Origin: Candidatus Limnocylindrales bacterium
Lineage (GTDB): Bacteria; Chloroflexota; Limnocylindria; Limnocylindrales; CSP1-4
Reading direction: 5' to 3'
Length of the DNA: 64,000 nucleotides
NCBI GenBank assembly: GCA_035692005.1
Contig: DASSII010000136.1
Span: 3,318 to 67,317 of the forward strand
Below are positions 2,952 through 61,559 of this stretch, one piece after another; positions within the stretch are counted from its first letter, which is position 1; every line of letters starts with the position of its first letter. The notes beneath the pieces were generated by a model, which worked only from the letters and a program-made list of their open reading frames with translations, did no database searches and was not told where the DNA came from. A program made the position numbers and the translations under genes.

Positions 2952-4423
2952 TGGCGACGACCCTGGACCCGACCGAATCGCTGACCGGCTGGCTCGGCGC
3001 GTTCGTCGCCGGCTGGCGACCGGGCAGCGGTGCCCCGATCGAGGATCGCGAGCCGGCCACCAACCGACTCATCACGACGGTTCCTGGCTCGACCCCGGAC
3101 GATGTCGCGGCGGCCGCCGCGCGGGCCAGGGCGGCCCAGCCGGCGTGGGCGGCGATGAACTACCAGGATCGCGCCCGGGTGTTGCGGCGCGCGGCCGAGG
3201 TCTACGAGACCAACCGCGACGAGTTCGGCATCTGGACCCAGCGCGAGACCGGTGCCTCGCGCAGCAAGATGTTCCACGAGTCCAACTTCGCCTACCACGA
3301 GATCCTCACCGCGGCGGGCTTGCCCGGGCAGGCCTATGGCTCGCTCGTGCCGTCGGCCGCCAAGGGTCGCCTGTCGATGGTCCGGCGCGTCCCGGCCGGG
3401 GTCATCGGCGCGATCACCCCGTGGAACTCGCCAAGCGTGCTGGGCATGCGCGTCGTCGCGCCGGCCCTCGCCCTGGGCAACGCGGTCGTGCTCAAGCCCG
3501 ATCCGCAGACACCGGTCGTGGGCGGGGCCATGTTCGAGGCGGTCTTCCGCGAGGCTGGCCTGCCTGACGGCCTCCTGCAGGTCGTCGTCGGCGGCGCGGA
3601 TGTCGGCGAGGCGCTCGTCACCGACCCGAACATCGATGTCGTGTCGTTCACCGGCTCGACCGCGGTCGGTCGACGGGTCGGCGAGCTCGGGGGCCGGCTG
3701 CTCAAGAAGGTCTCGTTGGAGCTCGGGGGCAACAACGCGTTCATCGTCCTCGACGACGCCGACCTGGATGCGGCGGCTGCCGCCGGCGCGTTCTCGTCGT
3801 TCCAGTTCCAGGGCCAGGTCTGCTTCGCGGCCGGCCGCCACCTTGTCGCCAGCGAGCTGGTTGATGCGTACACCGAGGCGCTGACCGAGAAGGCCCGCAA
3901 GCTCAAGCTCGGCGACCCGTACCGCGAGGATGTCCAGCTCGGGCCGATCGTCAACGACAAGCAGCTCGCGCGGGTGGCCGGCATCGTCGAGCGCTCGATC
4001 GAGGGCGGGGCGAAGGCGACCGTCGGGGCCAGCCACGAGGGCCTGTTCTACCGGCCGACGGTGCTCACCGGGGTCACCACCGACCTGCCGGCCTGGACCG
4101 ACGAGATCTTCGGCCCGGTCGCGCCGATCGTCAGCTTCGACAGCGACGAGGAGGCGATCGCCCTCGCCAACCAGAGCAACTACGGCCTCGTCGCCTCGAT
4201 CTACACCCGCTCGCTCGGGCGCGGCCTGGCGATGGCCGACCGGATGAAGACCGGCATGGTCCACATCAACGACGGGACGCAGAACGACGAGGCGAACATC
4301 CCGTTCGGCGGGATGGGCGAATCCGGCAACGGCGGCCGCTACGGCGGCGAGGCCAGCCTGGATACGTTCACCGAGTGGCAGTGGGTGACCATCCGCGACG
4401 AGCCGCCGAACTTCCCGTTCTGA
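2951..4423 (+). CDS. NAD(P)-dependent aldehyde dehydrogenase
   Basis: 490 aa with ALDH hallmarks (ITPWNSP, FTGSTAVGRRV, ELGGNNAFIVLDDADLD, catalytic Cys context QGQVCFAAGR). ATG 2951 shares a base with the upstream TGA. Confidence 0.9.
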   Translation: MATTLDPTESLTGWLGAFVAGWRPGSGAPIEDREPATNRLITTVPGSTPDDVAAAAARARAAQPAWAAMNYQDRARVLRRAAEVYETNRDEFGIWTQRETGASRSKMFHESNFAYHEILTAAGLPGQAYGSLVPSAAKGRLSMVRRVPAGVIGAITPWNSPSVLGMRVVAPALALGNAVVLKPDPQTPVVGGAMFEAVFREAGLPDGLLQVVVGGADVGEALVTDPNIDVVSFTGSTAVGRRVGELGGRLLKKVSLELGGNNAFIVLDDADLDAAAAAGAFSSFQFQGQVCFAAGRHLVASELVDAYTEALTEKARKLKLGDPYREDVQLGPIVNDKQLARVAGIVERSIEGGAKATVGASHEGLFYRPTVLTGVTTDLPAWTDEIFGPVAPIVSFDSDEEAIALANQSNYGLVASIYTRSLGRGLAMADRMKTGMVHINDGTQNDEANIPFGGMGESGNGGRYGGEASLDTFTEWQWVTIRDEPPNFPF

Positions 4424-5454
4424 TGGCCTCCATCTCGGACGTGGCCAAGCTCGCCGGGGTGTCCACGGCGACCGTGTCGCGGGTCGTGTCGGCGGCTCCG
4501 TACGCGGTCAGCCCGGCCACCCGGGAGCGGGTCCTCGATGCGGCGCGCACGCTCGACTACGTGCCCAACGCGCTGGCGCGCGGCCTGCACAAGAGCCACA
4601 TCCCGGTCGTCGGGGTGATCGTCCATGACATCACCGACCCGTACTTCTCGGAGCTCGTGCGCGGGGTGGAGGACGCCGCGACGCCGGCCGGGTCGCTGGT
4701 CATCACGTGCAGCTCCGACCGGGTCGCCGAACGCGAGGAGTCGTACGTCCGGCTGCTTCGCTCGATGCGAGCCTCGACCCTCATCTTCGCCAGCAGCGGT
4801 CTCGACGAGCCGATCGTGAACGCGGCGATCCGGCGCCACGTCACGGCCATGCGCGAGTACGGTGCCGCAGTCGTCCACCTGTCGCCGCATGCCGACGGCC
4901 ATGCCGATGTCGGGGTCGACAACGAGGCCGGCGTCGCCTCGATGGTCGTGGCGCTGGCGGAGCTCGGCCATCGGCACATCGCGTTCCTGGCCGGGCCGAC
5001 GTCGTTGTTCGTGGCCCGGCAGCGGTTGGCCGGCTACCGACGCGGCCTGGTCGAGGCCGGCCTCGCCTACGACGACCGGCTGGTCGTGAGCACCCCCTTC
5101 GACCAGGAGGGCGGGGCGCTCGCCATCGACACGCTGCTCGGTGGGGCGGCGCCGTTCACGGCGGTCGGAGCGGCCAACGACCTGCTCGCGCTCGGGGCAC
5201 TGGAGCGGCTGGCCATCCGGGGGCGGCGCGTGCCGGACGACGTGTCGGTCGCGGGCTTCGACGACATCCAGACCGCCCGGATGGCCACGCCCCCGTTGTC
5301 GACCGTGCGTCTGCCGCTCTACGACATCGGGCGCCGTGCGTTCGCCGCGGCCGAGCGCCAGCGCAGCGGCGAGACGCTGGAGCCGGAGGTCCTGCCGACC
5401 GCGGTCGTCCTGCGCGCCTCGACGGCTCCGCCCGCGGACGGCCTGGCCGGATGA
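4423..5454 (+). CDS. LacI-family transcriptional regulator
   Basis: N-terminal HTH MASISDVAKLAGVSTATVSRVV followed by a periplasmic-binding-protein-like sugar-binding fold. ATG 4423 overlaps the ALDH stop. Confidence 0.9.
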   Translation: MASISDVAKLAGVSTATVSRVVSAAPYAVSPATRERVLDAARTLDYVPNALARGLHKSHIPVVGVIVHDITDPYFSELVRGVEDAATPAGSLVITCSSDRVAEREESYVRLLRSMRASTLIFASSGLDEPIVNAAIRRHVTAMREYGAAVVHLSPHADGHADVGVDNEAGVASMVVALAELGHRHIAFLAGPTSLFVARQRLAGYRRGLVEAGLAYDDRLVVSTPFDQEGGALAIDTLLGGAAPFTAVGAANDLLALGALERLAIRGRRVPDDVSVAGFDDIQTARMATPPLSTVRLPLYDIGRRAFAAAERQRSGETLEPEVLPTAVVLRASTAPPADGLAG

Positions 5455-6287
5455 CCGACGGCGCCCTCGTCGACCCGGCGACCGGAGCTTCCGGCCCGGT
5501 GCTGCCCTCGCCCGGCCCGAGCCAGATCGTCCTGCGCGGCGTGACCAAGCGCTACCGCACGAGCGGTGGCTCGCAGGAGGCGCTCGCGCCGGTCGACCTC
5601 GAGATCCCGCGCGGGCAGTTCATCTCGCTGCTCGGCCCGTCCGGGTGCGGCAAGACCACACTGCTCAAGATGGTCGGCGGGCTCATCGAGACGTCGTCGG
5701 GTGAGCTGCGCATCGATGGCGGATCGGTCACCGACGCGCTGCGTCGACGGGCCTTCGGATTCGTCTTCCAGGACGCCACCCTGCTGCCCTGGAAGAACGT
5801 CATCGACAACGCCAGCCTGCTGACCGACGTCGCCAGGGTGCCCGGCGCGCGCGAGCGAATCCCCGGGTTGTTGCGGATGGTCGGCCTGGAGGGGTTCGCC
5901 GACTTCTATCCGTGGCAGCTATCGGGCGGCATGCGCCAACGCGTGTCGCTGGCCCGGGCGCTCGCCCTGGAGCCGGCGATCCTGCTCATGGACGAGCCGT
6001 TCGCGGCGCTCGACGCCCTCACCCGCGACCGGATGGGTGAGGAGCTGCTGAAGATCCTCGACGGCACGCGGACCGTCGTGTTCGTCACCCACTCCGTGCC
6101 GGAAGCCGTCCTGCTGTCCGACCGGGTGGTCGTCATGTCCCCCGGCCCGGGGCGCGTCGTCGCCGATGTCCGCATCGATCTGCCCCGGCCCCGCCGGGAG
6201 GACGTCCGGCGCACCCCCGCGTTCAGCGAGTACGAGTACCAGCTCCGCAGCCTCATCCAGGCTCCGCCGGGGGTCGGCGATGGCTGA
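5451..6287 (+). CDS. ABC transporter ATP-binding protein (NitT/TauT type)
   Basis: Walker A GPSGCGKTT, ABC signature LSGGMRQR, Walker B ILLMDEPF. ATG 5451 forms an ATGA overlap with the LacI stop. Confidence 0.9.
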   Translation: MTDGALVDPATGASGPVLPSPGPSQIVLRGVTKRYRTSGGSQEALAPVDLEIPRGQFISLLGPSGCGKTTLLKMVGGLIETSSGELRIDGGSVTDALRRRAFGFVFQDATLLPWKNVIDNASLLTDVARVPGARERIPGLLRMVGLEGFADFYPWQLSGGMRQRVSLARALALEPAILLMDEPFAALDALTRDRMGEELLKILDGTRTVVFVTHSVPEAVLLSDRVVVMSPGPGRVVADVRIDLPRPRREDVRRTPAFSEYEYQLRSLIQAPPGVGDG

Positions 6288-7125
6288 GCGTCGGGCCTCG
6301 GTCGCCCGGCGCCCGACCGCCGATGCGGTCGGTGGCATCGTCGTGCCCAGGAGTCGGGCCGCTCCCAAGCGCGCGGCCCAGCGCCTGCTGCCGCTGGCGT
6401 TCATCGCCGTGCTGCTCGTCATCTGGGAGCTCGTCGCGCGCTTCGGTGACGTCCCCCAATACATCCTGCCCGCGCCGTCGGCCATCGCGGGCCGGCTCGT
6501 CAGCTCGTGGGAGATCCTGTGGGACGCCCTCCTGGTCACGACCAGCGAGGTGCTCATCGGCTTCGTGATCGGCGTCGTGCTGGGCATCGGCCTGGCCATC
6601 CCGATCGCCTACTCGGCGACCGTCCGCAACACCCTGTACCCGATCATCGTCGCGTCGCAGGCGGTCCCCAAGATCGCCATCGCGCCGCTCCTCGTGCTGT
6701 GGCTCGGCTTCGACATCTGGCCGAAGATCGCGGTCACCGCGCTGATGGTGTTCTTCCCGGTGACGGTGACCGCCGCCGAGGGCTTCACATCGGTCGACCG
6801 GAACCTCATCGACCTGCTGCGCTCGGTGCACGCGTCCCAGCGCGAGATCTTCTTCCGCGTTCGCTTCCCGCACGCCCTGCCGCAGATCTTCAGCGGTCTC
6901 AAGGTGGGCATCACCCTGGCTGTCGTCGGCGCTGTCGTCGGCGAGTGGGTCGGCGCGGATAGCGGGCTCGGCTACCTGCTCGTCTACGCCAATACCCTGC
7001 TCGATTCCACGCTGCTGTTCGCGGCGCTGTTCCTGTTGATCGTCCTTGGTGTCGTGCTGTTCATCCTCGTCGGGGTGGCCGAACGGCTGCTCCTGCCGTG
7101 GAACCGCGAGGCCGAGGACGGTTGA
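6280..7125 (+). CDS. ABC transporter permease (NitT/TauT type)
   Basis: Multi-TM protein with a binding-protein-dependent transport signature region. ATG 6280 overlaps the ATPase stop by 8 nt. Confidence 0.85.
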   Translation: MAERRASVARRPTADAVGGIVVPRSRAAPKRAAQRLLPLAFIAVLLVIWELVARFGDVPQYILPAPSAIAGRLVSSWEILWDALLVTTSEVLIGFVIGVVLGIGLAIPIAYSATVRNTLYPIIVASQAVPKIAIAPLLVLWLGFDIWPKIAVTALMVFFPVTVTAAEGFTSVDRNLIDLLRSVHASQREIFFRVRFPHALPQIFSGLKVGITLAVVGAVVGEWVGADSGLGYLLVYANTLLDSTLLFAALFLLIVLGVVLFILVGVAERLLLPWNREAEDG

Positions 7126-7182
7126 TGGGATCGCACCGCCCCCAGCGGCGAGATCACCCACGTGGCTACAGGAGGTCCTGAC

Positions 7183-8238
7183 ATGATCGAGTCTCGGAGA
7201 CTACGGCTGACCCTCGCTCTGGCGGCGGGTCTGGCCGTGGCAGCCTGTAGCAGCGGGACCGGCGGCACGCCGAGCGCTGCTCCGTCCGAAGCCCCGACCA
7301 CGAGCGCCGAGGCGAGCACACCGGCGGAAGCCTCGCCGTCCGCGCCCGTCGAGGTCGTCAAGGTCGACTTCCGGCTCAACTGGGTCATCGCCGGCAACCA
7401 CGCCCCGTTCTACCTGGCCCAGCAGAAGGGCTTCTGGACCGAGTGCGGCCTGGACGTCTCGATGGCCGCCGGGAAGGGCTCGGGCGACACCGCCCAGCTC
7501 GTCGCCAATGGCTCCCAGCCGTTCGGCCTGACCGATGCGGTCTCGATCGCGGCCGGCCGTGGCAAGGGCCTCCCGGTCAAGTCGCTGGGTGTCCTGTACC
7601 AGACCAATCCCGCCTCGATCGTGTCGTACAAGGCGACCGGCATCACCACCCTCGACGACGTCAAGGGCAAGACCTGGGGTGCCGTCCCCGGCGGCTCGCC
7701 ATTCCTGCTGCTCAAGGGCCTGTTCAAGGCGCAGGGCATCGGCGACGACGACTACCGCGAGGTGAGCGTCCCCGCCCCGGGCATCGCCCAGCTCAAGGCG
7801 AAGCAGGTCGACTTCATCACGTTCTTCGGCAACGAGGCCGCCAACATCGACCCGGATCCGGCGGCCAACCTCAACGTGCTCCCGTTCAAGGACTTCGGTC
7901 AGGACATCTACGGCCTGGCCATCGCGTCCTCGGACGACTACATCGCCGCGCATCCCGATCAGGCCGCCTGCTTCGTCGATGGCGTGCGCAAGGGATTGGA
8001 AGCGGCCAAGGCCGACCCCGATGCGGCCCTCGCGGCGCTGTACGCGGCGGCACCCGAGACCAAGGACCGACCGGACGTCATGCGCACGCTGCTCGATGGC
8101 GTGTACGAGTACGCCGGGGCCACCTACCTCGAGCAGACCGCGGAGAAGTGGGACGCGACCCAGACGGTCCTCGTCGACTCCGGGATCATCGACGCGGCGG
8201 TGCCGACCGCCGACCTGTTCACCAACGACTACCAGTGA
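7183..8238 (+). CDS. ABC substrate-binding lipoprotein, NMT1/THI5-like (NitT/TauT family)
   Basis: GGAGG at 7171-7175 lies 7 nt before ATG 7183. Lipobox LAVAACSSG. NMT1-like core (VDFRLNWVIAGNHAPFYLAQQKGFW). Confidence 0.8.
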   Translation: MIESRRLRLTLALAAGLAVAACSSGTGGTPSAAPSEAPTTSAEASTPAEASPSAPVEVVKVDFRLNWVIAGNHAPFYLAQQKGFWTECGLDVSMAAGKGSGDTAQLVANGSQPFGLTDAVSIAAGRGKGLPVKSLGVLYQTNPASIVSYKATGITTLDDVKGKTWGAVPGGSPFLLLKGLFKAQGIGDDDYREVSVPAPGIAQLKAKQVDFITFFGNEAANIDPDPAANLNVLPFKDFGQDIYGLAIASSDDYIAAHPDQAACFVDGVRKGLEAAKADPDAALAALYAAAPETKDRPDVMRTLLDGVYEYAGATYLEQTAEKWDATQTVLVDSGIIDAAVPTADLFTNDYQ

Positions 8239-8296
8239 CCGCCCACCCGTAGCGAGGGACCCACAGTCCATGGAGATCGATCCCGAGTGGATCGAC

Positions 8297-8321
8297 GGCG
8301 GCCGCCCACCGGGCGGCCGCC
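8297..8321. terminator. Perfect 10-bp GC stem (GGCGGCCGCC, loop caccg, GGCGGCCGCC) after the transporter genes
   Basis: Read directly in the 117-nt gap between the SBP stop and the SDR start. No U-tract follows, so the function (terminator or processing/stability element) is uncertain. Confidence 0.35.
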
Positions 8322-8355
8322 GTCCGACACCGACACCGATGCGGGGGACCGCCTG

Positions 8356-9111
8356 ATGGCCGACGTGCTGGCCGGGCGGGTCGTCCTCGTCACCGGCAGC
8401 AGCCGGGGCATCGGCGCCGAGATCGCGGTCAAGGCCGCGGCCGAGGGCGCGCTGGTCGCCGTCCACTTCCACACCTCGGCGGACGGCGCGGCGCGGACCG
8501 TCGAGCGTGCCCGGGAGCATGGGGCGGAGGCCCGCGCGTTCCAGGCCGACGTCGGCGACGGTGCCCAGGCCGAGCGGCTCGTGGCCGAGGTCACCGACGC
8601 ATTCGGACGGGTCGATGCGCTCGTCAACAACGCCGGCCGGACCCAGGTCGGGCCATTCCTCGAGATCAGCCCGGAGATCTGGGACGCGATCCTGCGCACC
8701 GACTTGACCGCGTCGTTCCATACCTGCCGGGCCGTCCTGCCCGGGATGGTCCAGCGCGGCAGCGGGGCGATCGTCAACATCGCCTCCCGGCTCGGCCAGA
8801 TGGGCGTGACCCAGACCGCCGCCTACAGCGCGGCCAAGGCTGGGCTCATCGGGCTCACGCGCTCACTGGCCCGCGAGTTCGGCGGGAGTGGCGTCCGGAT
8901 CAACGCCGTCGCGCCGGGCGTGACCATCACCGAGATGACGACCGACCTCGTCGACTCGGAGGCCGGCAAGGCCCGCCTGCGCGATCACGCGCTGGGCCGC
9001 TTCGGTGCGGCCGACGAGGTCGCCGACGCGGTCATCTTCCTGCTGTCCGATGCGGCCGGGCTGTTCACCGGCCAGACCCTCAATCCGAATGCCGGGAGCT
9101 ATATGCCGTGA
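8356..9111 (+). CDS. SDR-family oxidoreductase (FabG-like)
   Basis: VLVTGSSRGIGAEIA cofactor motif, NNAG, and YSAAK catalytic motif. ATG 8356 chosen over the longer ORF 8287. Confidence 0.9.
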   Translation: MADVLAGRVVLVTGSSRGIGAEIAVKAAAEGALVAVHFHTSADGAARTVERAREHGAEARAFQADVGDGAQAERLVAEVTDAFGRVDALVNNAGRTQVGPFLEISPEIWDAILRTDLTASFHTCRAVLPGMVQRGSGAIVNIASRLGQMGVTQTAAYSAAKAGLIGLTRSLAREFGGSGVRINAVAPGVTITEMTTDLVDSEAGKARLRDHALGRFGAADEVADAVIFLLSDAAGLFTGQTLNPNAGSYMP

Positions 9112-10679
9112 CGACCATCATCGACGTCCGCGAGGCCGTCGGCCTCGTCCGTGACGGGAGCACCGTGGTCATCGGCGGCTCCGGCGCGGGGCACGCCCTG
9201 CCCCAGCGCTTCATCGACGAGCTGGCGAGCGTGTTCGAGGAGACCGGCCACCCGCGCGACCTGACGACCGTGCGGGTCGTCGGCATCGGCGATTTCGCCG
9301 ATCGTGGCTTCAGCCAACTCGGGCTGCCCGGCCTGCAGCGCCGGACGATCGGCAGCAACATCGGCAACGAGCCGCGCCTCGGGGCGCTCGTCCAGAGCGG
9401 CGAGGTCGAGTCGTACTCGTTCCCACAGGGCGTCCTGTCGCAGCTCATGCGCGAGATCGCCGCGGGTCGTCCGGGGCTGCTCACCCAGGTCGGGCTGGGC
9501 ACGTACGTCGACCCACGCCAGACCGGGGGCAAGCAGAACGAGCGCACGACCGACGACCTCGTCGAGGTGCTGACCGTGCGCGGCCGGGAGTGGCTGCTGT
9601 TCCACGCCTTCCCGATCGATGTCGCGCTGATCCGGGGCACGACCGCCGACGAGGACGGCAACCTGTCGATGGAGGGCGAGGCCGTCCAGGGCGAGATGCT
9701 GGCGATGGCCATGGCTGCCCGCAACAGCGGCGGCATCGTCATCGCCCAGGTCAAGCGGCTGGCCACGCGCGGCAGCCTGCCGATGCGCGACATCAAGGTG
9801 CCGGGCGCGCTGATCGATCACGTGTACGTCGATCCGGACCAGTGGCAGACGTACATCACCGAGGATTCGCCGTACTACGCCGGGGCGCTCCGGCGCCCGG
9901 TCCGGCCGGAGCCGCCGCTACCGCTCGACGTGCGCAAGATCGTCGCCCGGCGCTCGCTCCTGGAGTTCCCGCCCGGAGCCATCTGCAACCTGGGCTTCGG
10001 CATCAGCCAGCTCATCGGGCGGGTGGCCTGGGAGGAGGGCGTCACCGACGAGCTGACGCTGACCGTCGAGCAGGGGATCTTCGGCGGGGTGCCGGTCGCC
10101 GGCAACGAGGGCGGAGCCGGGTTCAACTACCAGGCCATGATCGACCAGCCCTACATGTTCGACTTCTACGACGGTGGCGGGCTCGATATCGCCAGCCTGT
10201 CGTTCGCCGAGGTCGACGCCGAGGGCAACGTCAACGTCCACGCCTTCGAGGGACGCGTCCGCGGTCCGGGTGGCTTCCCCAACATCTCCGCGAAGACCGG
10301 CCGCATCAACTTCGTCGGCACGCTCACGGCCAAGGGCCTCGAGCTCGACATCGACGACGGGGTGCGCATCGTGCACGAGGGCTCGCTGCAGAAGTTCGTG
10401 CCGGCGGTCAGGGAGATCTCGTTCAACGGCCGACTCGCACGCGAGCGCGGGCAGCAGGTCCGCTACGTGACCGAGCGGGCGGTGTTCGCGCTGGAGGCCG
10501 ATGGCCTGGTGGTCATCGAGATCGCCCCGGGCATCGACCTCGAGCGCGACGTCCTCGGCCAGATGGGCTTCCGACCGCGTGTCGCCGACGATCTGCGCGA
10601 GATGGACCGGCGCCTGTACGCGATCGGGCCGATGGGCTTGGCCGCCGAGTTCGCGGCCCGCCGGGCGGGCTCGGCGTGA
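9108..10679 (+). CDS. Acyl-CoA:acetate / 3-ketoacid CoA-transferase (fused alpha/beta type)
   Basis: 523 aa with family I CoA-transferase architecture (N-terminal [13 protein letters not shown]). GTG 9108 overlaps the SDR stop (GTGA). Confidence 0.85.
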
Positions 10680-55264: not shown

Positions 55265-55385
55265 GTGGCCGATCCTTCCGTTCGACTGCTGCGGGCCGTA
55301 ACCCGTCTTCGATGGCTAATCAGTTACTACTGAGAATCTACAGGCTTGCGCGTAACCTGTCAACTGGACTAAAGTGGTTATTGCG

Positions 55386-56051
55386 ATGACAACAGCAGCT
55401 GCACACCAGGGAAACGGCGGGCACGCCCACGACGTGAGCCTCGACGACACGTTCGCCTTCCTCAACACTGACGATCTCGACAACGGCGAGCGGTTCGAGC
55501 GCTTGCCCACGCTCGATGACGCCCTGGCCTGGTTCGTGGATCGGGGCGTCATCCACGCCGAAGGCTCCGATCGGGTCCACGCCCAAGCGGACGCCCAGCC
55601 GAGCTTGGCGGTACGTGACCTCGCCCGTGTGCATGCCGTGCGTGCCGCGCTCCGCGAGGTGGCCGATTCGGTCGCCGAGCAGCGAGCGCCGCGCATCGGC
55701 GCACTCGACACCGTCAATCGCGCGTTGCACGCGCGCCAGGTCATCGAGCTGCTGCCCGCGCCCGACGGCGTCGCGGTCGACCACCGCCACGTCGGCGATC
55801 CGATCGACGACGCCCTGGCGCGACTGGCCGACCCGCTCGTCGTCGAGTTGACGGCCGGCCACCCCGAGCGCATCCGGATCTGCGACAACGATCGCTGTCG
55901 CTGGGTCTTCTACGACACCTCACGGACGGGTCGCCGTCGCTGGTGCGACATGACCACCTGCGGCAACCGAGCCAAGGCGGCTCGCCATCGCGCCCGGGCG
56001 AAGGTCGGCGCCGACGGCGACGCCGCCTTCGAGGCAGCACCGCCGATCTGA
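55386..56051 (+). CDS. CGNR zinc-finger (ABATE-domain) putative regulator
   Basis: C-terminal RICDNDRCRWVFYDTSRTGRRRWCDMTTCGNRAKA is the zf-CGNR signature. GTG 55374 is an alternative start. Confidence 0.85.
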   Translation: MTTAAAHQGNGGHAHDVSLDDTFAFLNTDDLDNGERFERLPTLDDALAWFVDRGVIHAEGSDRVHAQADAQPSLAVRDLARVHAVRAALREVADSVAEQRAPRIGALDTVNRALHARQVIELLPAPDGVAVDHRHVGDPIDDALARLADPLVVELTAGHPERIRICDNDRCRWVFYDTSRTGRRRWCDMTTCGNRAKAARHRARAKVGADGDAAFEAAPPI

Positions 56052-56062
56052 GCGTCCTTTCG

Positions 56063-56083
56063 GCGCGGAGTGCTTATCCGCGC
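56063..56083. terminator. Bidirectional hairpin GCGCGGA gtgctta TCCGCGC between convergent genes
   Basis: Read directly. It overlaps the TAA stop of the LLM gene and lies 12 nt after the CGNR stop. Confidence 0.45.
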
Positions 56084-57012
56084 TCGAGCAGCGGGCGCAC
56101 TTCGGTCGCGAAGCGGGTCATCGATTCCTCGTCGTACGGCGCCGGGAAGCCGGCGATGAGATGGCGATACCCGATGTCGAGGAACGGGGCGAGTTTCTCG
56201 GCAACATCCTCAGGTGTGCCGATCGGCTGATCGCGCCACACCGGGGCGTCGCCGTTCGTGGCCGCGACCTGGCGTTGGATGCGCTCGGCCTCCGCACGGG
56301 AGTCGCGGATGATGACCGTGCCGAGGCCGGTCGTCCGTTCGATCTCCGCCGGATCGCGCCCGACGCTCTCGCAATGCTGGACGAGGATCGCATCCTTGCT
56401 GCGGACGTTGTCGATGCCGTCGCCGATGTTGCAGGCATCGCCGTAGCGGGCCACGAGCTTGAGCGTGACCTTCTCGCCGTCGCCACCGATCAGCAGCGGC
56501 AGGTGTGCCTGGATGGGTGGCGGATCGTTGCGCACGGCGCGCACGGCGTAGCGCGGGCCGGTGGCCGTCGGCCGTTCACCGTGGAGCATCCCGCGCATGA
56601 TCGGCAACGCCTCGCCGAGCCAGCGCAGGCGCTCCGGGAAGCCGTCCCCGAAGGCCAAACCGTACGCCTCGTGCTCGGTCTCGAACCAGGCCGCGCCGAT
56701 GCCGAGGATCGCCCGCCCGTTCGAGATGTGGTCGAGCGTGGTGGCCATCTTCGCGGTCAGCGCCGGCTCCCGAAACGTGTTCGCACCGACCATCAGCCCG
56801 ATCCGGATCCGCTCCGTCGCCTGCGCCCAGGCAGCCAGGGTCAGCCACCCCTCGAAGATCGGCCCCTCGTGGCTGCCGACGATCGGGTACAGGTGGTCCC
56901 ACGTCCAGAGACTTGTGTATCCAAGCTCGTCGGCTCGGATCCCGGCCTGGAGGAGCGACGGCCAGTCGGTGTACTGGTTCCAGCACAGAGCACCGATCTT
57001 GATCTCAGTCAC
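56074..57012 (-). CDS. LLM-class (luciferase-like) F420/flavin-dependent oxidoreductase, intact copy
   Basis: 312 aa with an LLM TIM-barrel sequence (LWTWDH, RIGLMVGANTFREPAL, LGIGAAWFETEH). GTG 57012 lies 6 nt after the SMI1 stop. Confidence 0.85.
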   Translation of the reverse strand: MTEIKIGALCWNQYTDWPSLLQAGIRADELGYTSLWTWDHLYPIVGSHEGPIFEGWLTLAAWAQATERIRIGLMVGANTFREPALTAKMATTLDHISNGRAILGIGAAWFETEHEAYGLAFGDGFPERLRWLGEALPIMRGMLHGERPTATGPRYAVRAVRNDPPPIQAHLPLLIGGDGEKVTLKLVARYGDACNIGDGIDNVRSKDAILVQHCESVGRDPAEIERTTGLGTVIIRDSRAEAERIQRQVAATNGDAPVWRDQPIGTPEDVAEKLAPFLDIGYRHLIAGFPAPYDEESMTRFATEVRPLLERG

Positions 57013-57018
57013 GTGGTC

Positions 57019-57390
57019 CTACTTCCATCGAACTTGCACTGGGGTCAACTCACCCGTTTCGTGGTCCCAGAAGCGCACCACATCATCGGCCGGCGAGAGG
57101 ACGAGGTAGTCGCCGCCGCCATTGTCGGCGATGGCGACCCAGCGCTCGGGCAATGCGTCCGGCCAGTCCCGCCGAAACGCCTCGTTCTCGCGGAGGATGT
57201 GATTGGCGGTCCGACCCATCGTCTTCCAGTTGGTTGAATCCCATACCGGGAAGAGCGTCCAGGTGTCGCGCATCGCGCGGATCTCGCCACCATTCTCGCG
57301 GATGAGCCGGGTCCGTTGCGCCTCGGGGAGCGTGCGACCAAGGACTGCCTCGGCAGCGGCAACCAGTTCCTCACTTCCTGCAAAGGCCAT
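57019..57390 (-). CDS. SMI1/KNR4 (SUKH-1) family protein, immunity-protein-like
   Basis: 123 aa. LPEAQRTRLIRENGG ... VAIADNGGGDYLVL ... VRFWDHETGEL matches the SUKH-1 pattern. GGTGGAGG RBS precedes ATG 57390. Confidence 0.8.
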   Translation of the reverse strand: MAFAGSEELVAAAEAVLGRTLPEAQRTRLIRENGGEIRAMRDTWTLFPVWDSTNWKTMGRTANHILRENEAFRRDWPDALPERWVAIADNGGGDYLVLSPADDVVRFWDHETGELTPVQVRWK

Positions 57391-57421
57391 CGGGCCGACC
57401 TCCACCACGCGTCGGGGCTGC

Positions 57422-57541
57422 GTGGTCCCAGGTCCAAAGGCTCGAGGAACCCAACTCGTCAGCCCGGATCCCGGCTTGGAGCAGGCTGGGCCAGCCCGTG
57501 TACTGGTTCCAGCAGAGCGCACCGATCCGCACGTCAGTCAT
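57422..57541 (-). pseudogene. Fragment: first 40 codons of an LLM oxidoreductase gene (second copy)
   Basis: MTDVRIGALCWNQYTGWPSLLQAGIRADELGSSSLWTWDH compared with the intact MTEIKIGALCWNQYTDWPSLLQAGIRADELGYTSLWTWDH. By hand alignment, 34/40 aa and 92/120 nt are identical. Similarity stops after WDH. Confidence 0.65.
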
Positions 57542-57640
57542 GCGAGCAAATGTATGGCCGTCGCTGACCAGGCGGGTCGCCCGCAAACGCCTACGCTGTG
57601 CCGGCAGAGAGTCGGGGATACAGGACGGAGTGGTCGTTTC

Positions 57641-58258
57641 ATGAGCGCCGAACCGATCGTCTTCTGGGGGCCGGGTTCAGAGTGGTTCTGGACCATGCTC
57701 CAGTTCGTCGTGGTGGCAGTGACTCTGGTCGGGATCTCCTACCAGTTCCGCCTGCAGCGCGCCGCCAATGCCTTTGAGCATCTCAACCGGATGGGCGAGC
57801 AGTTGGATTCCGAGCAGATGCTCCGAGCGAGGCTGGAGGTGGCTCGTGCGCTCGTGGCCGGCGCGGAGACTCCCCAGGGCGCATTGTTCCTGATCGGCAA
57901 CTACTGGGACAGCATCGGAAGCCTTGTTCGCGAACGGCACGTCGATGAGCGCCTGGTGTCAGAGACGCTTGGTGGGGCGGTCACCATTTGGTGGATTGCC
58001 CTCTCAGAGGCGACGGGCCGAATTCGCAAGGAGCGGATGGATCCGACGGTCCTCGCCAATTTCGAGTGGCTGGCGAAGCGGGTCAGCGGCGATGACGCGA
58101 AGTCAGGTGCCGCGCCCGTGTACGACAAGACGGCCGCGCTACGCATCTTCGAAGCTGGGATCCCAAGCCTGGTCGACCGGATCCGGATGGCGGAGGAATC
58201 ACGCATGGTGCCCGAGCGCCGGGCGCCTCGATCTCGCCGAGCTGCCTCCGTCGAGTAG
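57641..58258 (+). CDS. Hypothetical membrane-anchored protein (N-terminal TM helix plus helical domain; family not recognised)
   Basis: GGAG-type RBS precedes ATG 57641. TM helix WFWTMLQFVVVAVTLVGISY. The region is visibly less GC-rich than its surroundings. The N-terminal 146 codons of ORF 57203.. are antisense to SMI1 and were discarded. Confidence 0.55.
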   Translation: MSAEPIVFWGPGSEWFWTMLQFVVVAVTLVGISYQFRLQRAANAFEHLNRMGEQLDSEQMLRARLEVARALVAGAETPQGALFLIGNYWDSIGSLVRERHVDERLVSETLGGAVTIWWIALSEATGRIRKERMDPTVLANFEWLAKRVSGDDAKSGAAPVYDKTAALRIFEAGIPSLVDRIRMAEESRMVPERRAPRSRRAASVE

Positions 58259-58353
58259 GTATTCGATCCGGCCGAAGCGCTCGCGCCATCGCTCGGTGTT
58301 CGCGGCCTCACGCATCGCGAGTCGGCCTTCGCACTCGCTCTCACGAACGAGCG

Positions 58354-58413
58354 GAGCGCGGGCCAGTCCGTGTCCTGGTTCCAGCAGAGCGCACCGATCT
58401 TGACCTCGGCCAT
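58354..58413 (-). pseudogene. Fragment: first 20 codons of an LLM oxidoreductase gene (third copy)
   Basis: MAEVKIGALCWNQDTDWPAL, with 49/60 nt identical to the intact gene by hand alignment. It keeps a GGAGAAG RBS and an ATG. The downstream frame is junk antisense to the 57641..58258 gene. Confidence 0.55.
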
Positions 58414-58429
58414 GACTTCTCCGGGCGGT

Positions 58430-58840
58430 TCAGGGACAGGGGCTGGTCGCTGGTCCCAGCGCGGGGAGCACTGCCGGGTCGAATGGTCCCACCGACATCA
58501 CCACCCGCCCGCACGCCAGGTCCTGCCATTCGGCCATCGGCATCGAGCCATCGATCGCTGCATCGAACATCGAGCGGGTACCGATCAGGCCGACCAGGGC
58601 AGCGCCGTTGGCTGACCGGGCCTGGATGGAGGTGGTCAGGTCGTCGAGCGCGAACGGCAGTGCGGCCGTGGTGTGCGGCGCCACGGTGCCGATCCACGTC
58701 CCGTTCACGTCGAGGGCCAAGGGCACGTCCGTGCCGTTCTGCAGCGTGACCAGCGTCGTCGCTCCGAGCATGCCGCACCCGCTGAGGGTGACGGCGAGCG
58801 CGGCAGCGAGCAGCGCAGTCGGGATGGCCCGTCGCCTCAC
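58430..58840 (-). CDS. Hypothetical lipoprotein
   Basis: GTG 58840 overlaps the leuS stop (GTGA). Lipobox AVTLSGCG. 136 aa. Confidence 0.6.
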   Translation of the reverse strand: MRRRAIPTALLAAALAVTLSGCGMLGATTLVTLQNGTDVPLALDVNGTWIGTVAPHTTAALPFALDDLTTSIQARSANGAALVGLIGTRSMFDAAIDGSMPMAEWQDLACGRVVMSVGPFDPAVLPALGPATSPCP

Positions 58841-61392
58841 CCGTCGCGCAGGACGATGTTGATGAGCTTGCCGCCGCCGGCCGCGATGATCCGGTCGGGG
58901 GTCCGGCCGGCCAGCAGGGTCGCGATCTTGGGACTGGACAGGACCTCGGCCTCGATCTGGGACGGGGTCGCGTCGGCTGCCACGATGACCTTGTCGCGCA
59001 GCTTGCCGTTGACCTGGACCGGGACCTCGCGGACGGACACCGCGGTCGCCGCCTCGTCCACGACCGGCCAGGCCTCCAGATGGATCGAGGTCCACGGCCG
59101 CCCCGCCGCCTCGGCCCGACGCGCCCAGATCTCCTCGGTGAGGTGCGGGGCAGCGGGCGCCAGCATCAGCATCAGCAAGCGGACCGCCTCGTCCCAGGCC
59201 GCGTCGCCGGCCAGCGTGGTGCCGCGGTAGCGGAACAGCGTGTTGGACAGCTCCATCAGCTTGGCGACCATCGTGTTGAAGCGGAACGCCTCGTAGTCCG
59301 CGGTGACGTCGCGCAGCGTCCGGTGCGCTGCGCCCCGGATGGCGATCGTCGCATCGGCCTCGGTCTCGCCTGACGGCAGGCGACCGGCATCCGGGTCACC
59401 GTGCTCGCGCCCGTGCGGATCCGTGGCGATCGTCCACACCCGGTTCAGGAATCGATGGACCCCGCCGATGCCCGTGGCGCTCCATGGGCCGCCCTGATCC
59501 CAGGGGCCCATGAACATCAGGAACAGCCGCACGGCGTCGGCGCCGTAGCGCCGGACCAGCTCGTCGGGATCCTGCACGTTGCCCCGCGACTTCGACATCC
59601 GCTCGCCGTCGGCGCCGAGGATCTGACCCTGATTGAACAGGCGCCGGAACGGCTCGTCGTCAGCGACCAGGCCGCAATCGCGCATCGCCTTGGTGAAGAA
59701 ACGGCTGTAGAGCAGGTGCATCACGGCGTGCTCGGCGCCCCCGGTGTACTGATCGACCGGTGTCCAGCGCTCGGCCGTGGCGGGATCCACCGGGCGCTCG
59801 TCATCGTGCGGCGACAGGTAGCGGAACCAGTACCACGATGAGTCGACGAAGGTGTCCATCGTGTCGGTCTCGCGTCGGGCAGGGCCACCGCAGCGTGGGC
59901 AGTCGACGCGCAGGAAGGCCTCGTCGTGATCGAGCGGGTTCGAGCCGCTGCCCTTGTAGTCGACCGTCTCTGGCAACCGGACCGGCAGGTCGCTGTCGGG
60001 CACGGGCACGATCCCGTCGCGCTCGCAGTAGATGACCGGGATCGGCGTGCCCCAGTAGCGCTGGCGGCTGATCAGCCAGTCGCGCAGCCGGTAGGTCACC
60101 TTCGGTTCGGCACTCCCGGCTGCCGCGAGGCGGGCAACGATGGCAGCGCCCCCCGCGTCGGCCGGCATCCCGTCGAACTCGCCACTGTTGACCAGGCGCT
60201 CGTCGGCCGCATGGGCGACGTAGGCGTCGTCCATCGGTGCATCGGCCTCGGTCCCCGGCGCGGCGACGACCCGGCGGATGGGCAGCCCGAACTGGCGAGC
60301 GAACGCGAAGTCGCGTTCGTCGTGGGCGGGCACCGCCATGATCGCGCCGGTGCCGTAGCCCGACAGGACGTAGTCGGCGATGAAGATCGGGATCCGCTCG
60401 CCGTTGATCGGGTTGATCGCCTCGGACCCGAGCGCGACGCCGGTCTTCTCCCGATCGGTGGACAGTCGGTCGATGTCGGTCTTGCGACGGGCCTGGTCGA
60501 TGTATGCCGTCACGTCGAGCGCACGGTCCGGCGCCGTCAGCTCGCCGACCAACGGGTGCTCGGGCGCGAGCACCATGAACGTCGCCCCGAACAGGGTGTC
60601 CGGCCGGGTGGTGAACACGCGCAGGGTGGCGCCGCCCGGGTGATGGTCCGCCGCTGCCGTCGCGAAGTCGATCTCGGCGCCCTCCGATCGACCGATCCAG
60701 TTGGTCTGCTGGATGCGGATCGGCTCGGGCCAGTCGATGCCCTCGAACGACAGCAGCTCATCGGCGTAGGCGGTCGTTCGCAGGTACCACTGTTCCAGGT
60801 CGCGTTTCTCGACGAGTGCGCCGCACCGCCAGCAGTGGCGATCGGCGCCCTCGACCTGCTCTCGCGCGAGGGTCCCGTCGTTCGGGCACCAGTCGACCGG
60901 CGACTTCTGGCGATAGGCCAGGCCGCGTTCCAGGAACTGCAGGAACAGCCACTGGTTCCAGCGGTAGTACTCCGGGTCCGCGGTGACGACCTCGTGCTTC
61001 CACGAGAAGGTGGCGCCCATCGTCCGGAACTGGCGGCGCATGTTGTCGATGTTCGACATCGTCCAGGTGAACGGGTGGATCCCGTTCCGGATGGCCGCGT
61101 TCTCGGCCGGCAGCCCGAACGCGTCGAAGCCGATCGGGAAGAATACGTTCAGACCGTGCATCCGCCGGAATCGGGCGATGGCGTCGGTCGGCGTCACGAT
61201 GTACCAGTGGCCGATGTGCAGGTCGCCCGACGGATACGGGTACATCGTCAGCAGGTAATGGCGCGGCTTCGTGTCGTCCGCCAGATCCGTCTCGTACAGG
61301 CCGAGCTCGGCCCAACGCGCCTGCCAGCGCGGCTCGACCACGGTGGGGTCGTAGCGCTCGACGACGGTGCGGCTGTCGGCGGTCTCGGTCAC
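58837..61392 (-). CDS. leuS: Leucine--tRNA ligase
   Basis: HIGH motif (YPSGDLHIGHWY), KMSKS motif (RMSKSRGN), and a CP1 editing domain. Start is GTG 61392 or GTG 61437. Confidence 0.9.
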   Translation of the reverse strand: MTETADSRTVVERYDPTVVEPRWQARWAELGLYETDLADDTKPRHYLLTMYPYPSGDLHIGHWYIVTPTDAIARFRRMHGLNVFFPIGFDAFGLPAENAAIRNGIHPFTWTMSNIDNMRRQFRTMGATFSWKHEVVTADPEYYRWNQWLFLQFLERGLAYRQKSPVDWCPNDGTLAREQVEGADRHCWRCGALVEKRDLEQWYLRTTAYADELLSFEGIDWPEPIRIQQTNWIGRSEGAEIDFATAAADHHPGGATLRVFTTRPDTLFGATFMVLAPEHPLVGELTAPDRALDVTAYIDQARRKTDIDRLSTDREKTGVALGSEAINPINGERIPIFIADYVLSGYGTGAIMAVPAHDERDFAFARQFGLPIRRVVAAPGTEADAPMDDAYVAHAADERLVNSGEFDGMPADAGGAAIVARLAAAGSAEPKVTYRLRDWLISRQRYWGTPIPVIYCERDGIVPVPDSDLPVRLPETVDYKGSGSNPLDHDEAFLRVDCPRCGGPARRETDTMDTFVDSSWYWFRYLSPHDDERPVDPATAERWTPVDQYTGGAEHAVMHLLYSRFFTKAMRDCGLVADDEPFRRLFNQGQILGADGERMSKSRGNVQDPDELVRRYGADAVRLFLMFMGPWDQGGPWSATGIGGVHRFLNRVWTIATDPHGREHGDPDAGRLPSGETEADATIAIRGAAHRTLRDVTADYEAFRFNTMVAKLMELSNTLFRYRGTTLAGDAAWDEAVRLLMLMLAPAAPHLTEEIWARRAEAAGRPWTSIHLEAWPVVDEAATAVSVREVPVQVNGKLRDKVIVAADATPSQIEAEVLSSPKIATLLAGRTPDRIIAAGGGKLINIVLRDG

Positions 61393-61483
61393 GGGTCCTC
61401 TCGTCGGTCGGTGCGTCGGTCGCCGGAGACGGTTCACCCCCCGCCGTCGGCGAGGGGTGATGGTCGGCGGTGCGGCACGTATC

Positions 61484-61559
61484 TGGTGGAGCTACGGGGA
61501 CTCGAACCCCGGACCCCCTGCATGCCATGCAGGTGCTCTTCCAGCTGAGCTATAGCCCC
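61484..61559 (-). tRNA. tRNA-Ala (anticodon GGC), CCA encoded
   Basis: Folded by hand. Acceptor GGGGCUA/UAGCUCC with G3:U70, D arm GCUC/GAGC, anticodon stem CCUGC/GCAGG with loop AUGGCAU, T arm CGGGG-UUCGAGU-CCCCG, and a 3' ACCA. 76 nt. Confidence 0.9.

Follow-up and report, generated by a model that had tools for sequence, protein, structure and literature searches.

The islands and prophages found at dusA insert at a fixed site in the 5' end of a conserved TIM-barrel flavoenzyme gene; they replace this 5' end including the first beta strand, and the target gene probably stays functional (PMC4482086). These elements are many kb long with highly variable cargo, and a tyrosine integrase is the one universal feature (PMC4482086). 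The SXT/R391 integrative conjugative elements insert in the 5' end of prfC (PMC2791158; Hochhut and Waldor 1999, cited there). Accretion is known from ICESt1/3 at fda and from the ssrA islands of Dehalococcoides, which is also a member of the Chloroflexota; here arrays are separated by direct repeats of the target-gene end, with more than a dozen tandem ssrA repeats in Dehalococcoides, and CIMEs without an integrase keep attL and attR and are mobilisable by a related element (PMC5704250, PMC3146451). The 5'-end-replacing islands at dusA and prfC together with CIME accretion are the closest known relatives of the array described here, which is built on an LLM oxidoreductase gene.

We analysed a 64,000-nt stretch of Limnocylindria DNA, referred to as the window. 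The first-pass annotation had reported that the 5' end of the LLM gene occurs three times on the minus strand and that each interval between the copies holds exactly one unrelated gene. All three 5' ends were confirmed (A from 57012, B at 57541-57422 and C at 58413-58354), as was one gene per interval, SMI1/KNR4 between A and B and DUF4760 between B and C. The order in the window is C - DUF4760 - B - SMI1 - A and the features of the region are as follows.

55374..56051, plus strand: ABATE/zf-CGNR regulator gene, conserved convergent right flank (PF11706 E=1.4e-20; PF07336 E=1.1e-12)
56074..57012, minus strand: LLM oxidoreductase gene, F420-type luciferase-like, 312 aa, intact, the chimeric target (PF00296 E=1e-42)
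56900..56907, minus strand: inferred crossover core TGGACGTG, right junction (attR), codons 36-38, W-T-W
56900..57012, minus strand: copy A, probable surrogate 5' end from the start codon to the TGGACGTG core (nt 1-113), from the SMI1 cassette (identities, max-chi2)
57019..57390, minus strand: SMI1/KNR4 (SUKH-1), 123 aa, cargo of what is probably the newest cassette (PF09346 E=1e-13)
57422..57541, minus strand: copy B, probably a displaced earlier 5' end, codons 1-40 (nhmmer E=1.7e-26)
57436-57429, minus strand: core of copy B, TGGACCTG, putative attL of the SMI1 cassette
57641..58258, plus strand: DUF4760 protein, membrane-anchored, 205 aa, opposite-strand cargo of what is probably an older insertion (PF15956 E=6e-12)
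58354..58413, minus strand: copy C, probably the oldest, resident 5' end, cut off at codon 20 (nhmmer E=9.7e-12)
58430..58840, minus strand: lipoprotein gene, 136 aa, lipobox LSGC, between leuS and copy C (sequence reading)
58837..61437, minus strand: leuS, conserved left flank of the variable region (tblastn matches)

The similarity between the copies was evaluated by several approaches. A repeat search returned the pair 56893-57011 and 57422-57540 (119 nt, 78% identity) and the triplet 56952-57011, 57481-57540 and 58353-58412 (60 nt, 77% and 85%), and a 23-mer from the repeated segment had three matches in the window as compared to none in 100 shuffles. Hand counts of 92/120 and 49/60 identical nucleotides had been given against the intact gene; the counts shifted slightly on the alignment, to 93/120 (A vs B) and 50/60 (A vs C). 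A formal nhmmer search using a profile built from 81 orthologous LLM 5' ends placed both fragments far above background (E=1.7e-26 for B and E=9.7e-12 for C). As claimed, the similarity begins at the start codon in all three copies and ends abruptly, in copy B stopping sharply after ...TGGACCTGGGACCAC (nt 120) and in copy C at nt 60. The reported excess of differences at third codon positions was also reproduced (A vs B 6/4/17 by codon position, p=0.004), and pooling seven further pairs of fragment and intact gene gave 66/44/108 (p=5e-7). The array is not an assembly artefact, as it is present at 99.6-99.8% identity in three independent assemblies from other sequencing runs (L098-L100).

The LLM protein scored 226 bits against TIGR03560, slightly below the cutoff of 231, and an exact-sequence look-up of the protein returned no record. 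Synteny of leuS, LLM and CGNR was found around the orthologues in most of 80 Limnocylindria genomes. The leuS identity by tblastn was 68-86% in most genome loci having upstream sequence, and the distance from leuS to LLM ranged across loci from -7 nt to 6.8 kb. Homologues of the lipoprotein occupy the same position in 8 other loci, and the lipoprotein gene of the window is a flank of the array and not a cassette. Scanning 56800-58900 for promoters and terminators found nothing, and Rfam returned a tRNA alone, outside the array.

For comparison we used about 100 related loci from Limnocylindria (Chloroflexota), consisting of genomes and metagenome contigs; members of this class are abundant in soil and groundwater and are uncultured. 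An upstream LLM 5' fragment with the same end point (codons 36-38, TGGACSTG) and different cargo was found in at least 17 loci besides the window. These include eight genome loci (L006, L007, L018, L044, L048, L050, L052 and L066, the match in L048 being weak at E=5e-4), seven metagenome contigs (L081-L083, L087/L088, L090 and L091) and loci carrying SMI1 (L092, L096 and L093-L095). An eighth metagenome contig, L086, gave a weak profile match (E=6e-4) with a junction that has 1 mismatch in 26 nt against L081 and L091. The profile match ended at position 113-125 in the 15 loci from genomes and metagenomes; for the loci with SMI1 the end was at 120-122. Almost every fragment reads TGGACSTG, after which the sequence is unrelated. 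In all loci cassette-specific sequence stops just before the 8-mer core and host-specific sequence starts at or just after it. The cargo types included cupin, a 60-aa membrane protein, SMI1, WapI, a restriction-modification system and a lipoprotein, and cassettes were mostly ~0.46-0.93 kb with a single gene. Comparing this region across relatives, as had been proposed, revealed other cassettes at the same site and one occupied/empty pair (L050/L078).

The same comparison bears on the possibility that three tandem LLM paralogues once lay here, the fragments being what deletion left of them, and that no mobile cassettes exist, which the first-pass annotation had named as an alternative to its own reading. 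A second LLM gene does lie nearby in L009 and L013 (downstream, 48-50% identity) and in L028 (upstream, 34%), but three intact tandem paralogues, or any intact tandem orthologue, were found upstream of the gene in no relative. In addition, every fragment ends at one and the same codon, the intervals are occupied by unrelated genes, and copies B and C are nearest to the orthologous 5' ends of related species rather than to paralogues. The probability of this explanation is practically nil.

In cassette-bearing loci the intact LLM gene is chimeric and its first ~110 nt belong to a common "mobile allele". These genes are full length with the reading frame kept behind the mobile-allele 5' end. The 5' part of copy A was 85-91% identical to L050, L066 and L044 while the remainder of the gene was nearest to L001, L002 and L003. 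The best matches of copy B were the intact 5' ends of L015 (87-89%) and L001 (85-86%), and copy C was 90.6% identical to L001 when 10 nt upstream of the start codon were counted; B and C resemble the 5' ends of the closest relatives (L001, L015) and A resembles other cassette-bearing loci. The mobile allele, recognised by "ELGYTS", was present in 6/9 fragment-bearing loci vs 4/72 others (Fisher p=5e-5). When metagenomes were searched with a 20-mer of the mobile allele, 11 contigs were recovered and a fragment was found in 8 of the 10 having more than 200 nt upstream, counting the weak match in L086. The max-chi2 breakpoint of the window fell at nt 105-120 (p=0.002) and 105-117 using two triplets. 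Elsewhere it fell at nt 117-123 (L052), 99-101 (L006) and 102-123 (L066), giving an overall range of nt 99-123 in five hosts with permutation p<=0.004 throughout.

Sharp edges were seen in the cupin cassette shared by L081, L086 and L091, which was 96-97% identical from the TGGACGTG/AGGTCGCGG boundary to CAAGTCTCTGGACNTG. Its flanks were far more diverged, with 63-77% identity for the left fragments and 78% for the gene body. Because these edges are sharp and the flanks diverged, the crossover is confined to 11 nt or less, which is too short for RecA-mediated recombination. Homologous exchange leaves its own trace in L092, where the intact 5' end is a mosaic, cassette-like for ~60 nt and then resident-like, and this shows that exchange of this kind also acts within the 117-nt segment. 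This mosaic, together with a 40-nt stretch common to B and C at 95% identity, would fit an explanation without any site-specific enzyme, in which the structure arose once by accident and was spread by homologous recombination (a double crossover with the fragment and the gene body as arms, or Campbell-type integration of a circle via the 117-nt homology). Such spread cannot place many unrelated cargos at one junction, and it predicts crossovers scattered over the fragment and the gene body, whereas in five hosts the fragments stayed resident-type, and the intact copies mobile-type, all the way to the core. With so many different cargos at a single junction this explanation is largely refuted, and we consider it very improbable.

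The fixed position of the junction also raises the possibility that a sequence-specific nuclease cuts the LLM core and that repair uses a cassette-bearing allele as template, in the manner of intron and intein homing. The insertion point falls within the strongly conserved motif LWTWDH, and homing elements typically choose such motifs; the junction overlaps a short GGWCC-like dyad. However, the cassettes carry no nuclease except for one restriction-modification unit, the flanks of the cupin cassette are without co-conversion tracts, and homing leaves the assembly of the surrogate 5' end and the arrival of new cargos unexplained. Homing is extremely improbable as the source of the array.

The junction and the chimeric gene can be compared directly with the dusA-type and prfC-type elements. 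As in those systems, insertion is at one fixed position in the 5' coding region and the element supplies new 5' coding sequence with the frame intact. Unlike in those systems, a weak scan found no element-encoded integrase adjoining the att site in the LLM cassettes. The units also differ from dusA islands in that they are mostly ~0.5-0.9 kb with one gene, in a Chloroflexota host and in a target that is an F420-type LLM gene. The SXT/R391 elements are ~100 kb, self-transmissible and encode Int and Xis, whereas the LLM cassettes are without integration or transfer genes. Tandem arrays of two elements are documented at the SXT/R391 prfC site.

Tandem accretion, in which each incoming unit displaces the previous 5' end, had been suggested from the window alone and was supported in every testable part: a recurrent end point with varied cargo, a foreign ~110 nt in the intact gene, the order in L093-L095 and the L050/L078 pair. 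L093-L095 read SMI1 - fragment - WapI - LLM, with SMI1 and its 5' end displaced upstream by the newer WapI unit. The L050 fragment and the sequence upstream of it correspond to the intact 5' end of L078, the gene bodies being 92.6% identical, and in L018 and L050 a TM-cassette end lies upstream of the fragment. The units are thus in tandem with a common att site and the newest adjoins the target gene, as in CIME accretion. Within the window the DUF4760 step was less clean than the SMI1 step, because copy C breaks off at nt 60 and lacks the canonical junction; the DUF4760 step may have involved deletion or another process. A decayed continuation of copy C to the canonical junction was considered and rejected, as its alignment was no better than shuffles; the 70 nt following copy C scored 20 against LLM nt 58-135 (shuffle mean 21) with no significant similarity. 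The 12-mer CGTGAGGCCGCG resembles the left arm of the cupin cassette, a resemblance that alone is not significant. The stop codon of SMI1 and the start of LLM are only 6 nt apart, and GGACCAC ahead of the start of copy A was rejected as an att scar, being conserved in this 6-nt spacer region of the SMI1 cassette in L093 and L096.

The loci have a common junction, a chimeric gene, sharp edges and an accretion order with no recognisable recombinase nearby, and the array is probably explained by site-specific insertion of small recombinase-less cassettes, each made of cargo and a surrogate LLM 5' end, at the leuS-LLM site. A cassette would consist of cargo, then a ribosome-binding site, then surrogate LLM codons 1-~37, and would recombine site-specifically within an 8-11 nt core, (CTC)TGGACSTG, at LLM codons 36-38. 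The LLM gene would take its new 5' end from the incoming copy, the enzyme would stay intact and the former 5' end would be left upstream as a fragment. Repeated insertion would then build a tandem array with the newest cassette adjoining the gene body. For the window this would mean that C was resident, that a DUF4760 unit brought B and that an SMI1 unit later brought A. The recombinase would presumably act in trans, from the chromosome or a helper element, via a circular intermediate, and same-strand cargo would be transcribed from the resident LLM promoter.

Most cassettes are too small to encode a recombinase. None was found in any cassette or within 10 kb, by a weak check based on regular expressions and on Pfam for a protein subset. 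Pfam on seven large cargo proteins from four of the large gaps (L019, L023, L048 and L076) returned GNAT, M48, NHL, cupin and DUF1801 and no recombinase, and three more cargo proteins were judged by eye to be P-type-ATPase-like, ABC-ATPase-like and a large repeat protein. Regular expression scans for tyrosine and serine recombinases in the window and in the loci through L097 gave only CGNR proteins and spurious frames. The absence of an integrase or transposase from the window, as originally stated, is in line with these motif scans, a weak test with only part of the ~55 genes of the window Pfam-scanned for recombinases. Integrase-bearing parent elements could exist unseen because MAG assemblies often break at large mobile elements.

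This last point favours a different origin, in which the cassettes are decayed remnants (CIMEs) of full-size integrase-bearing islands or prophages at the LLM 5' end and the small units never moved. Integration, decay and a next integration are documented for arrays at fda, tRNA and ssrA (PMC5704250, PMC3146451). The LLM units resemble CIMEs in being flanked by attL/attR repeats of the target end and in lacking genes for integration or transfer, several contigs break off immediately upstream of LLM, and one larger unit is known, the 3.3-kb unit of L087, which carries a restriction-modification system. Several observations argue against decay. An integrase-bearing parental element was found at the site in 0 of about 100 sampled loci, although large elements are under-represented in MAGs. 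The 0.8-kb cupin unit has both edges identical and is 96-97% identical in three hosts, which under decay requires either the same deletion three times over or mobility of the small unit. Finally, 12 of the ~16 measured units cluster at ~0.46-0.58 kb with exactly one gene. The described arrays also differ in kind: their repeats are 3' ends, such as 20 bp of ssrA, and many of their units keep a serine-recombinase integration module, whereas the LLM repeat is ~110-120 nt of 5' coding sequence and no LLM unit carries a recombinase. Origin by decay is unlikely.

Insertion of small cassettes by a recombinase acting in trans invites comparison to integrons. Like integron cassettes, the LLM units are small, mostly one gene, recombinase-less and inserted serially at a fixed site, in a position to be driven by a resident promoter. 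No attC-like site was detected, as the sole segment common to different cassettes, the LLM 5' end, folds as ssDNA no better than shuffles (z = -0.67 to +0.47). No intI was found either, the flanks being leuS, lipoprotein and CGNR genes with no tyrosine-recombinase motif within 10 kb by a weak test. Unlike in integrons, cargo at the LLM site can lie on the opposite strand (DUF4760). A more far-reaching proposal, which we hold to be conceivable but doubtful, is that Limnocylindria maintain a dedicated integron-like gene-capture platform in which a trans recombinase inserts and excises promoterless, usually one-gene cassettes at codons 36-38 of LLM, a gene both conserved and expressed. Under this proposal the surrogate 5' end would serve in place of attC, and the resident promoter and start codon on the displaced fragment would drive the cargo, the fragment often ending in a stop codon exactly at the junction. 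New cassettes would arise via RGWCC-like secondary sites upstream of genes adjoining LLM.

A likeness to the orphan-module arrays of polymorphic toxin loci had also been suggested. This held as an analogy of architecture: as in Rhs/CDI arrays, a displaced module keeps a fragment of the main gene and some cargo is in immunity families (SUKH/SMI1, WapI). It did not hold for mechanism, which is nearer to the 5'-replacing islands at dusA and prfC. Unlike Rhs/CDI, the LLM array is a mirror image (5' not 3'), its junction is a short fixed core rather than a long tract of homology, the main gene codes for a metabolic enzyme, the LLM oxidoreductase, with no toxin gene, and cargo also includes cupin, restriction-modification, membrane peptide and lipoprotein genes. 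PADLOC on SMI1, DUF4760 and the lipoprotein returned no match. In L092 and L096, too, the SMI1 cassette has an LLM fragment on one side and the LLM gene on the other. SMI1 cassettes of different hosts were 78-82% identical, about the divergence of the host gene, and the spread of the cassette could be old or partly vertical. For DUF4760, contig P0085 carries an 80%-identical homologue directly upstream of LLM, divergent and without SMI1 between, and the homologues in L101 and L103 were in unrelated contexts.

If cassette insertion at the LLM gene is correct it would represent a third design for stacking small genes at one chromosomal address, beside integrons (attC) and CIME/island accretion (3'-end repeats), with the recombination site hidden inside a surrogate 5' end and the target enzyme kept intact. 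The cassettes also show that immunity-like, defence and small envelope genes pass horizontally from one Limnocylindria species to another. A literature search for mobile elements of Limnocylindria found nothing. The definition of the 8-11 nt core and of the ~110-nt arm is precise enough for junction PCR design and for a search for co-occurring recombinases.

Viral contigs were searched with an exact 20-mer and a 26-mer of the mobile allele and with an exact 20-mer of the cupin left arm; these sequences were absent, circular junctions being outside the reach of this search. A scan with a conserved LLM 26-mer returned a single viral contig, L104, which encodes a large serine recombinase. This enzyme was rejected as the integrase for the site because the prophage-like DNA of L104 stops before the LLM promoter region, on its upstream side, and because none of the L104 proteins occur in any other locus. 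The L104 recombinase has the R-x-S-T-x-x-Q motif that was targeted by the looser regular expression scan.

The 5' end of the gene for an F420-type LLM oxidoreductase (near TIGR03560) occurs three times in the window, and each interval between copies holds a single unrelated gene, as follows.

56074-57012, minus strand: copy A, the intact LLM oxidoreductase gene
57019-57390, minus strand: SMI1/KNR4 (SUKH-1) gene, between A and B
57541-57422, minus strand: copy B, an LLM 5' fragment
57641-58258, plus strand: DUF4760 gene, between B and C
58413-58354, minus strand: copy C, an LLM 5' fragment

A repeat search recovered a 119-nt pair (78% identity) and a 60-nt triple (77% and 85%), and counted on the alignment copy A shares 93/120 identical nt with B and 50/60 with C. 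A profile of 81 orthologous 5' ends matched B at E=1.7e-26 and C at E=9.7e-12, and a 23-mer of the segment occurred 3 times in the window versus 0 in 100 shuffles. Similarity starts at the start codon and halts after TGGACCTGGGACCAC in copy B and at nt 60 in copy C, beyond which C has no recognisable LLM continuation. Differences between A and B fell 6/4/17 by codon position and those of seven other fragment/intact pairs, pooled, fell 66/44/108 (p=5e-7); this third-position enrichment indicates copies that diverged under coding selection and not a decaying local duplication. The whole array was recovered at 99.6-99.8% identity in three independent assemblies from other sequencing runs and is therefore not an assembly artefact. 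The first-pass annotation had claimed from the sequence three 5' ends with similarity above background, onset at the start codon, an abrupt end, third-position differences, one unrelated gene per interval and an origin other than misassembly, and all of this held. One matching contig, L098 (Logan DRR673950), was 99.6% identical to window 55891-58893 with one 1-nt indel; the SMI1 call was only 84 aa there and in one JGI contig, and part of the population may carry a frameshift in this cargo. A tRNA-Ala(GGC) gene (61484-61559, minus strand) lies immediately upstream of leuS, and the array region showed no repeat of this gene's 3' end.

Scanning one genome per species yielded 80 loci, almost all of them in MAGs of Limnocylindria or other Chloroflexota. 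Gene order was conserved (leuS, gap, LLM, convergent ABATE/zf-CGNR gene), and the gap ranged from a 7-nt overlap to 6.8 kb with changing small genes (GNAT, DUF1801, cupin, M48 peptidase, lipoproteins, NHL-repeat proteins, a P-type-ATPase-like protein); two core genes thus enclose a hypervariable interval. At L009:10972-11895, L013:10981-11904 and L028:8553-9338 the target gene has another LLM paralogue beside it (34-50% identity). The closely related genomes L050 and L078 carry a 216-nt gap segment on opposite strands (L050:8486-8701, L078:8150-8365; 89.8% identity).

An upstream LLM 5' fragment was found in eight other genome loci (L006, L007, L018, L044, L048, L050, L052 and L066), the L048 match being weak (E=5e-4). 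A search of metagenomes with a 20-mer specific to the 5' ends of genes that bear cassettes gave 11 contigs; 10 had more than 200 nt upstream and seven of these showed a clear fragment. An eighth, L086, gave a weak profile match and a junction nearly identical to those of contigs L081 and L091. SMI1 homologue look-ups added L092, L096 and L093-L095. In nearly all loci the fragment ends at the core TGGACSTG (codons 36-38, W-T-W) and locus-specific sequence follows, with these cargos.

114-aa cupin
60-aa membrane protein
SMI1
WapI
methyltransferase/endonuclease pair plus third gene, a 3.3-kb unit
lipoprotein
several proteins of unknown function

Past the core, several cassettes have RGWCC in their left arm, and arm and core form an apparent short dyad, such as TGGAC-CTGA-GTCCA in L082. 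Two metagenomic fragments are very divergent, L086 (reverse-complemented, 134-259; VGALIWPQGGSWEQ...) and L090 (reverse-complemented, 685-812; LGMIAWPQYATWEQ...), the latter preceded by a gene that by eye is PPOX-like. Their source may be another LLM paralogue, which suggests that the conserved LWTWD motif opens other LLM genes to the cassettes as well. In L089 (reverse-complemented) a 359-aa DDE transposase gene (1104-2183, rve-type by eye) lies directly upstream of an LLM gene bearing the mobile 5' allele, and no fragment was visible in the 2.3 kb of sequence present.

This mobile allele spans the ~110 nt that open the intact gene, where cassette-bearing loci resemble each other. Copy A matches L050 there at 91% identity, L066 at 89% and L044 at 87%, and the rest of the window gene, unlike its 5' end, groups with L001, L002 and L003. 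Breakpoints placed by maximum chi-square test (all permutation p<=0.004) were as follows.

Window, two triplets: nt 105-120 and 105-117
L052: nt 117-123
L006: nt 99-101
L066: nt 102-123

The amino-acid signature of the allele, ELGYTSLWTWDH, was present in 6/9 fragment-bearing loci versus 4/72 others (Fisher p=5e-5). The displaced copies look resident-type by sequence affinity: C, taken with 10 nt upstream, matches the closest relative, L001, at 90.6% identity, and B is nearest L015 and L001. That the fragments are remnants of tandem intact LLM paralogues, the case named beforehand as fatal to accretion, is excluded by the relatives' loci, these affinities and the junctions.

Three comparisons show that the unit consists of cargo and the 5' end downstream of it. 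The order SMI1, fragment, WapI, LLM in L093-L095 indicates that a WapI unit displaced an SMI1 unit upstream. What precedes the fragment in L018 and L050 is the same sequence that precedes the intact gene in L044 and L078, and is the end of the membrane-protein cassette. L050 and L078 share 92.6% identity in the gene body, and the intact 5' end of L078 aligns with the L050 fragment plus the sequence preceding it; L050 has an extra ~0.8-kb unit before the gene body, giving an occupied/empty pair. In the window, a DUF4760 unit bringing B would have entered at resident C, followed by an SMI1 unit bringing A. In another contig, from the same sample as one window-like contig, LLM is directly preceded by a DUF4760 homologue (80% identity) and SMI1 is absent, which fits the intermediate state. 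The DUF4760 step is less certain than the SMI1 step because the C/DUF4760 junction is non-canonical. The proposal of repeated insertion displacing earlier 5' ends is thus supported, and extended, by the shared junction with different cargo, the chimerism and the accretion order, and the comparison of relatives that it called for produced both other cassettes and the L050/L078 pair.

The cupin cassette is 96-97% identical over ~700 nt in three hosts (L081, L086, L091), with fragments to its left 63-77% identical and the gene body to its right 78% identical in the one measurable pair (L081/L086). Identity starts at TGGACGTG|AGGTCGCGG and ends at CAAGTCTCTGGACNTG|GGACCAC, confining exchange to 8-11 nt. 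Such a length is insufficient for RecA-dependent recombination, which would scatter crossovers along the 117-nt homology. The sharp edges point to a site-specific crossover. The membrane-protein cassette had a similar pattern at lower identity (80-86% inside versus 66-76% outside). Homologous exchange inside the segment does occur (L092 has a mosaic 5' end), but spread by homologous recombination alone cannot account for unrelated cargos that share a junction. A site-specific nuclease acting by homing is highly improbable, with no evidence in its favour. The GGACCAC/GGACCGC before the surrogate start codon (window 57013-57018, L093, L096) looks like what follows the core. It belongs to the SMI1 cassette, where it is conserved, and is not a junction scar.

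No cassette codes for a recombinase, and all units except the 3.3-kb one are too small for it. No recombinase emerged when seven large cargo proteins, taken from four of the large gaps, were run against Pfam, nor when the window and every locus, including flanks of up to 10 kb, were scanned for motifs. The viral contig L104 (IMG/VR UViG_3300009646_000250) has prophage-like DNA (226-9782) directly upstream of an LLM orthologue, encoding a primase-polymerase, a ParB-methyltransferase, two small-terminase genes and a 498-aa large serine recombinase (3589-5085). This enzyme was rejected as the inserting one: the foreign DNA ends before the LLM promoter region, its proteins are in no other locus, and related genomes become homologous again 40-66 nt ahead of the start codon, which places the insertion elsewhere than at codons 36-38. 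We therefore infer an inserting enzyme that acts in trans. Integron cassettes, Xer-dependent elements and CIMEs (integrase-less island members keeping attL and attR) are moved by enzymes in trans. Single-stranded folding of the shared segment was no better than that of shuffled sequences and the SMI1 stop lies 6 nt from the LLM start, arguing against an attC-like site.

Islands at dusA insert in the 5' end and substitute their own sequence, including the first TIM barrel beta strand, with the integrase as their only universal feature (PMC4482086); SXT/R391 elements act likewise at prfC (PMC2791158). Tandem arrays split by target-end repeats, integrase-less members included, occur in streptococci and in Dehalococcoides ssrA islands (PMC3146451, PMC5704250). 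Like these elements, the LLM cassettes occupy a fixed site, restore the gene they enter and accrete; they differ in a unit, usually of one gene, without recombinase, in a repeat that is a ~110-nt 5' coding segment and in their host, an uncultured class of the phylum that includes Dehalococcoides. A single literature search turned up no mention of such elements for this class. The main alternative, decay of full-size integrase-bearing islands by the CIME route (PMC5704250), gains from the under-sampling of large elements in MAGs, but would need an identical deletion three times for the cupin unit.

In several left junctions a stop codon lies at the core or within three codons (e.g. TGG ACG TGA), so translation from the resident start would finish just before the cargo. 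This layout is compatible with the LLM promoter driving same-strand cargo; scans for consensus promoters and terminators found nothing. At another gene, the contig L097:1-5843 (ENA ERZ25039476 contig_15264) has a 116-nt direct repeat (2-117 and 5697-5812, 97% identity), a duplicated 3' end of a molybdopterin-oxidoreductase gene. No recombinase was among its gene calls, and the repeat flanks a 5.7-kb stretch filled with small genes (DUF416, DUF4262 and an SMI1 homologue 74% identical to that of the window) that looks like an analogous integrase-less island, but at a gene's 3' end.
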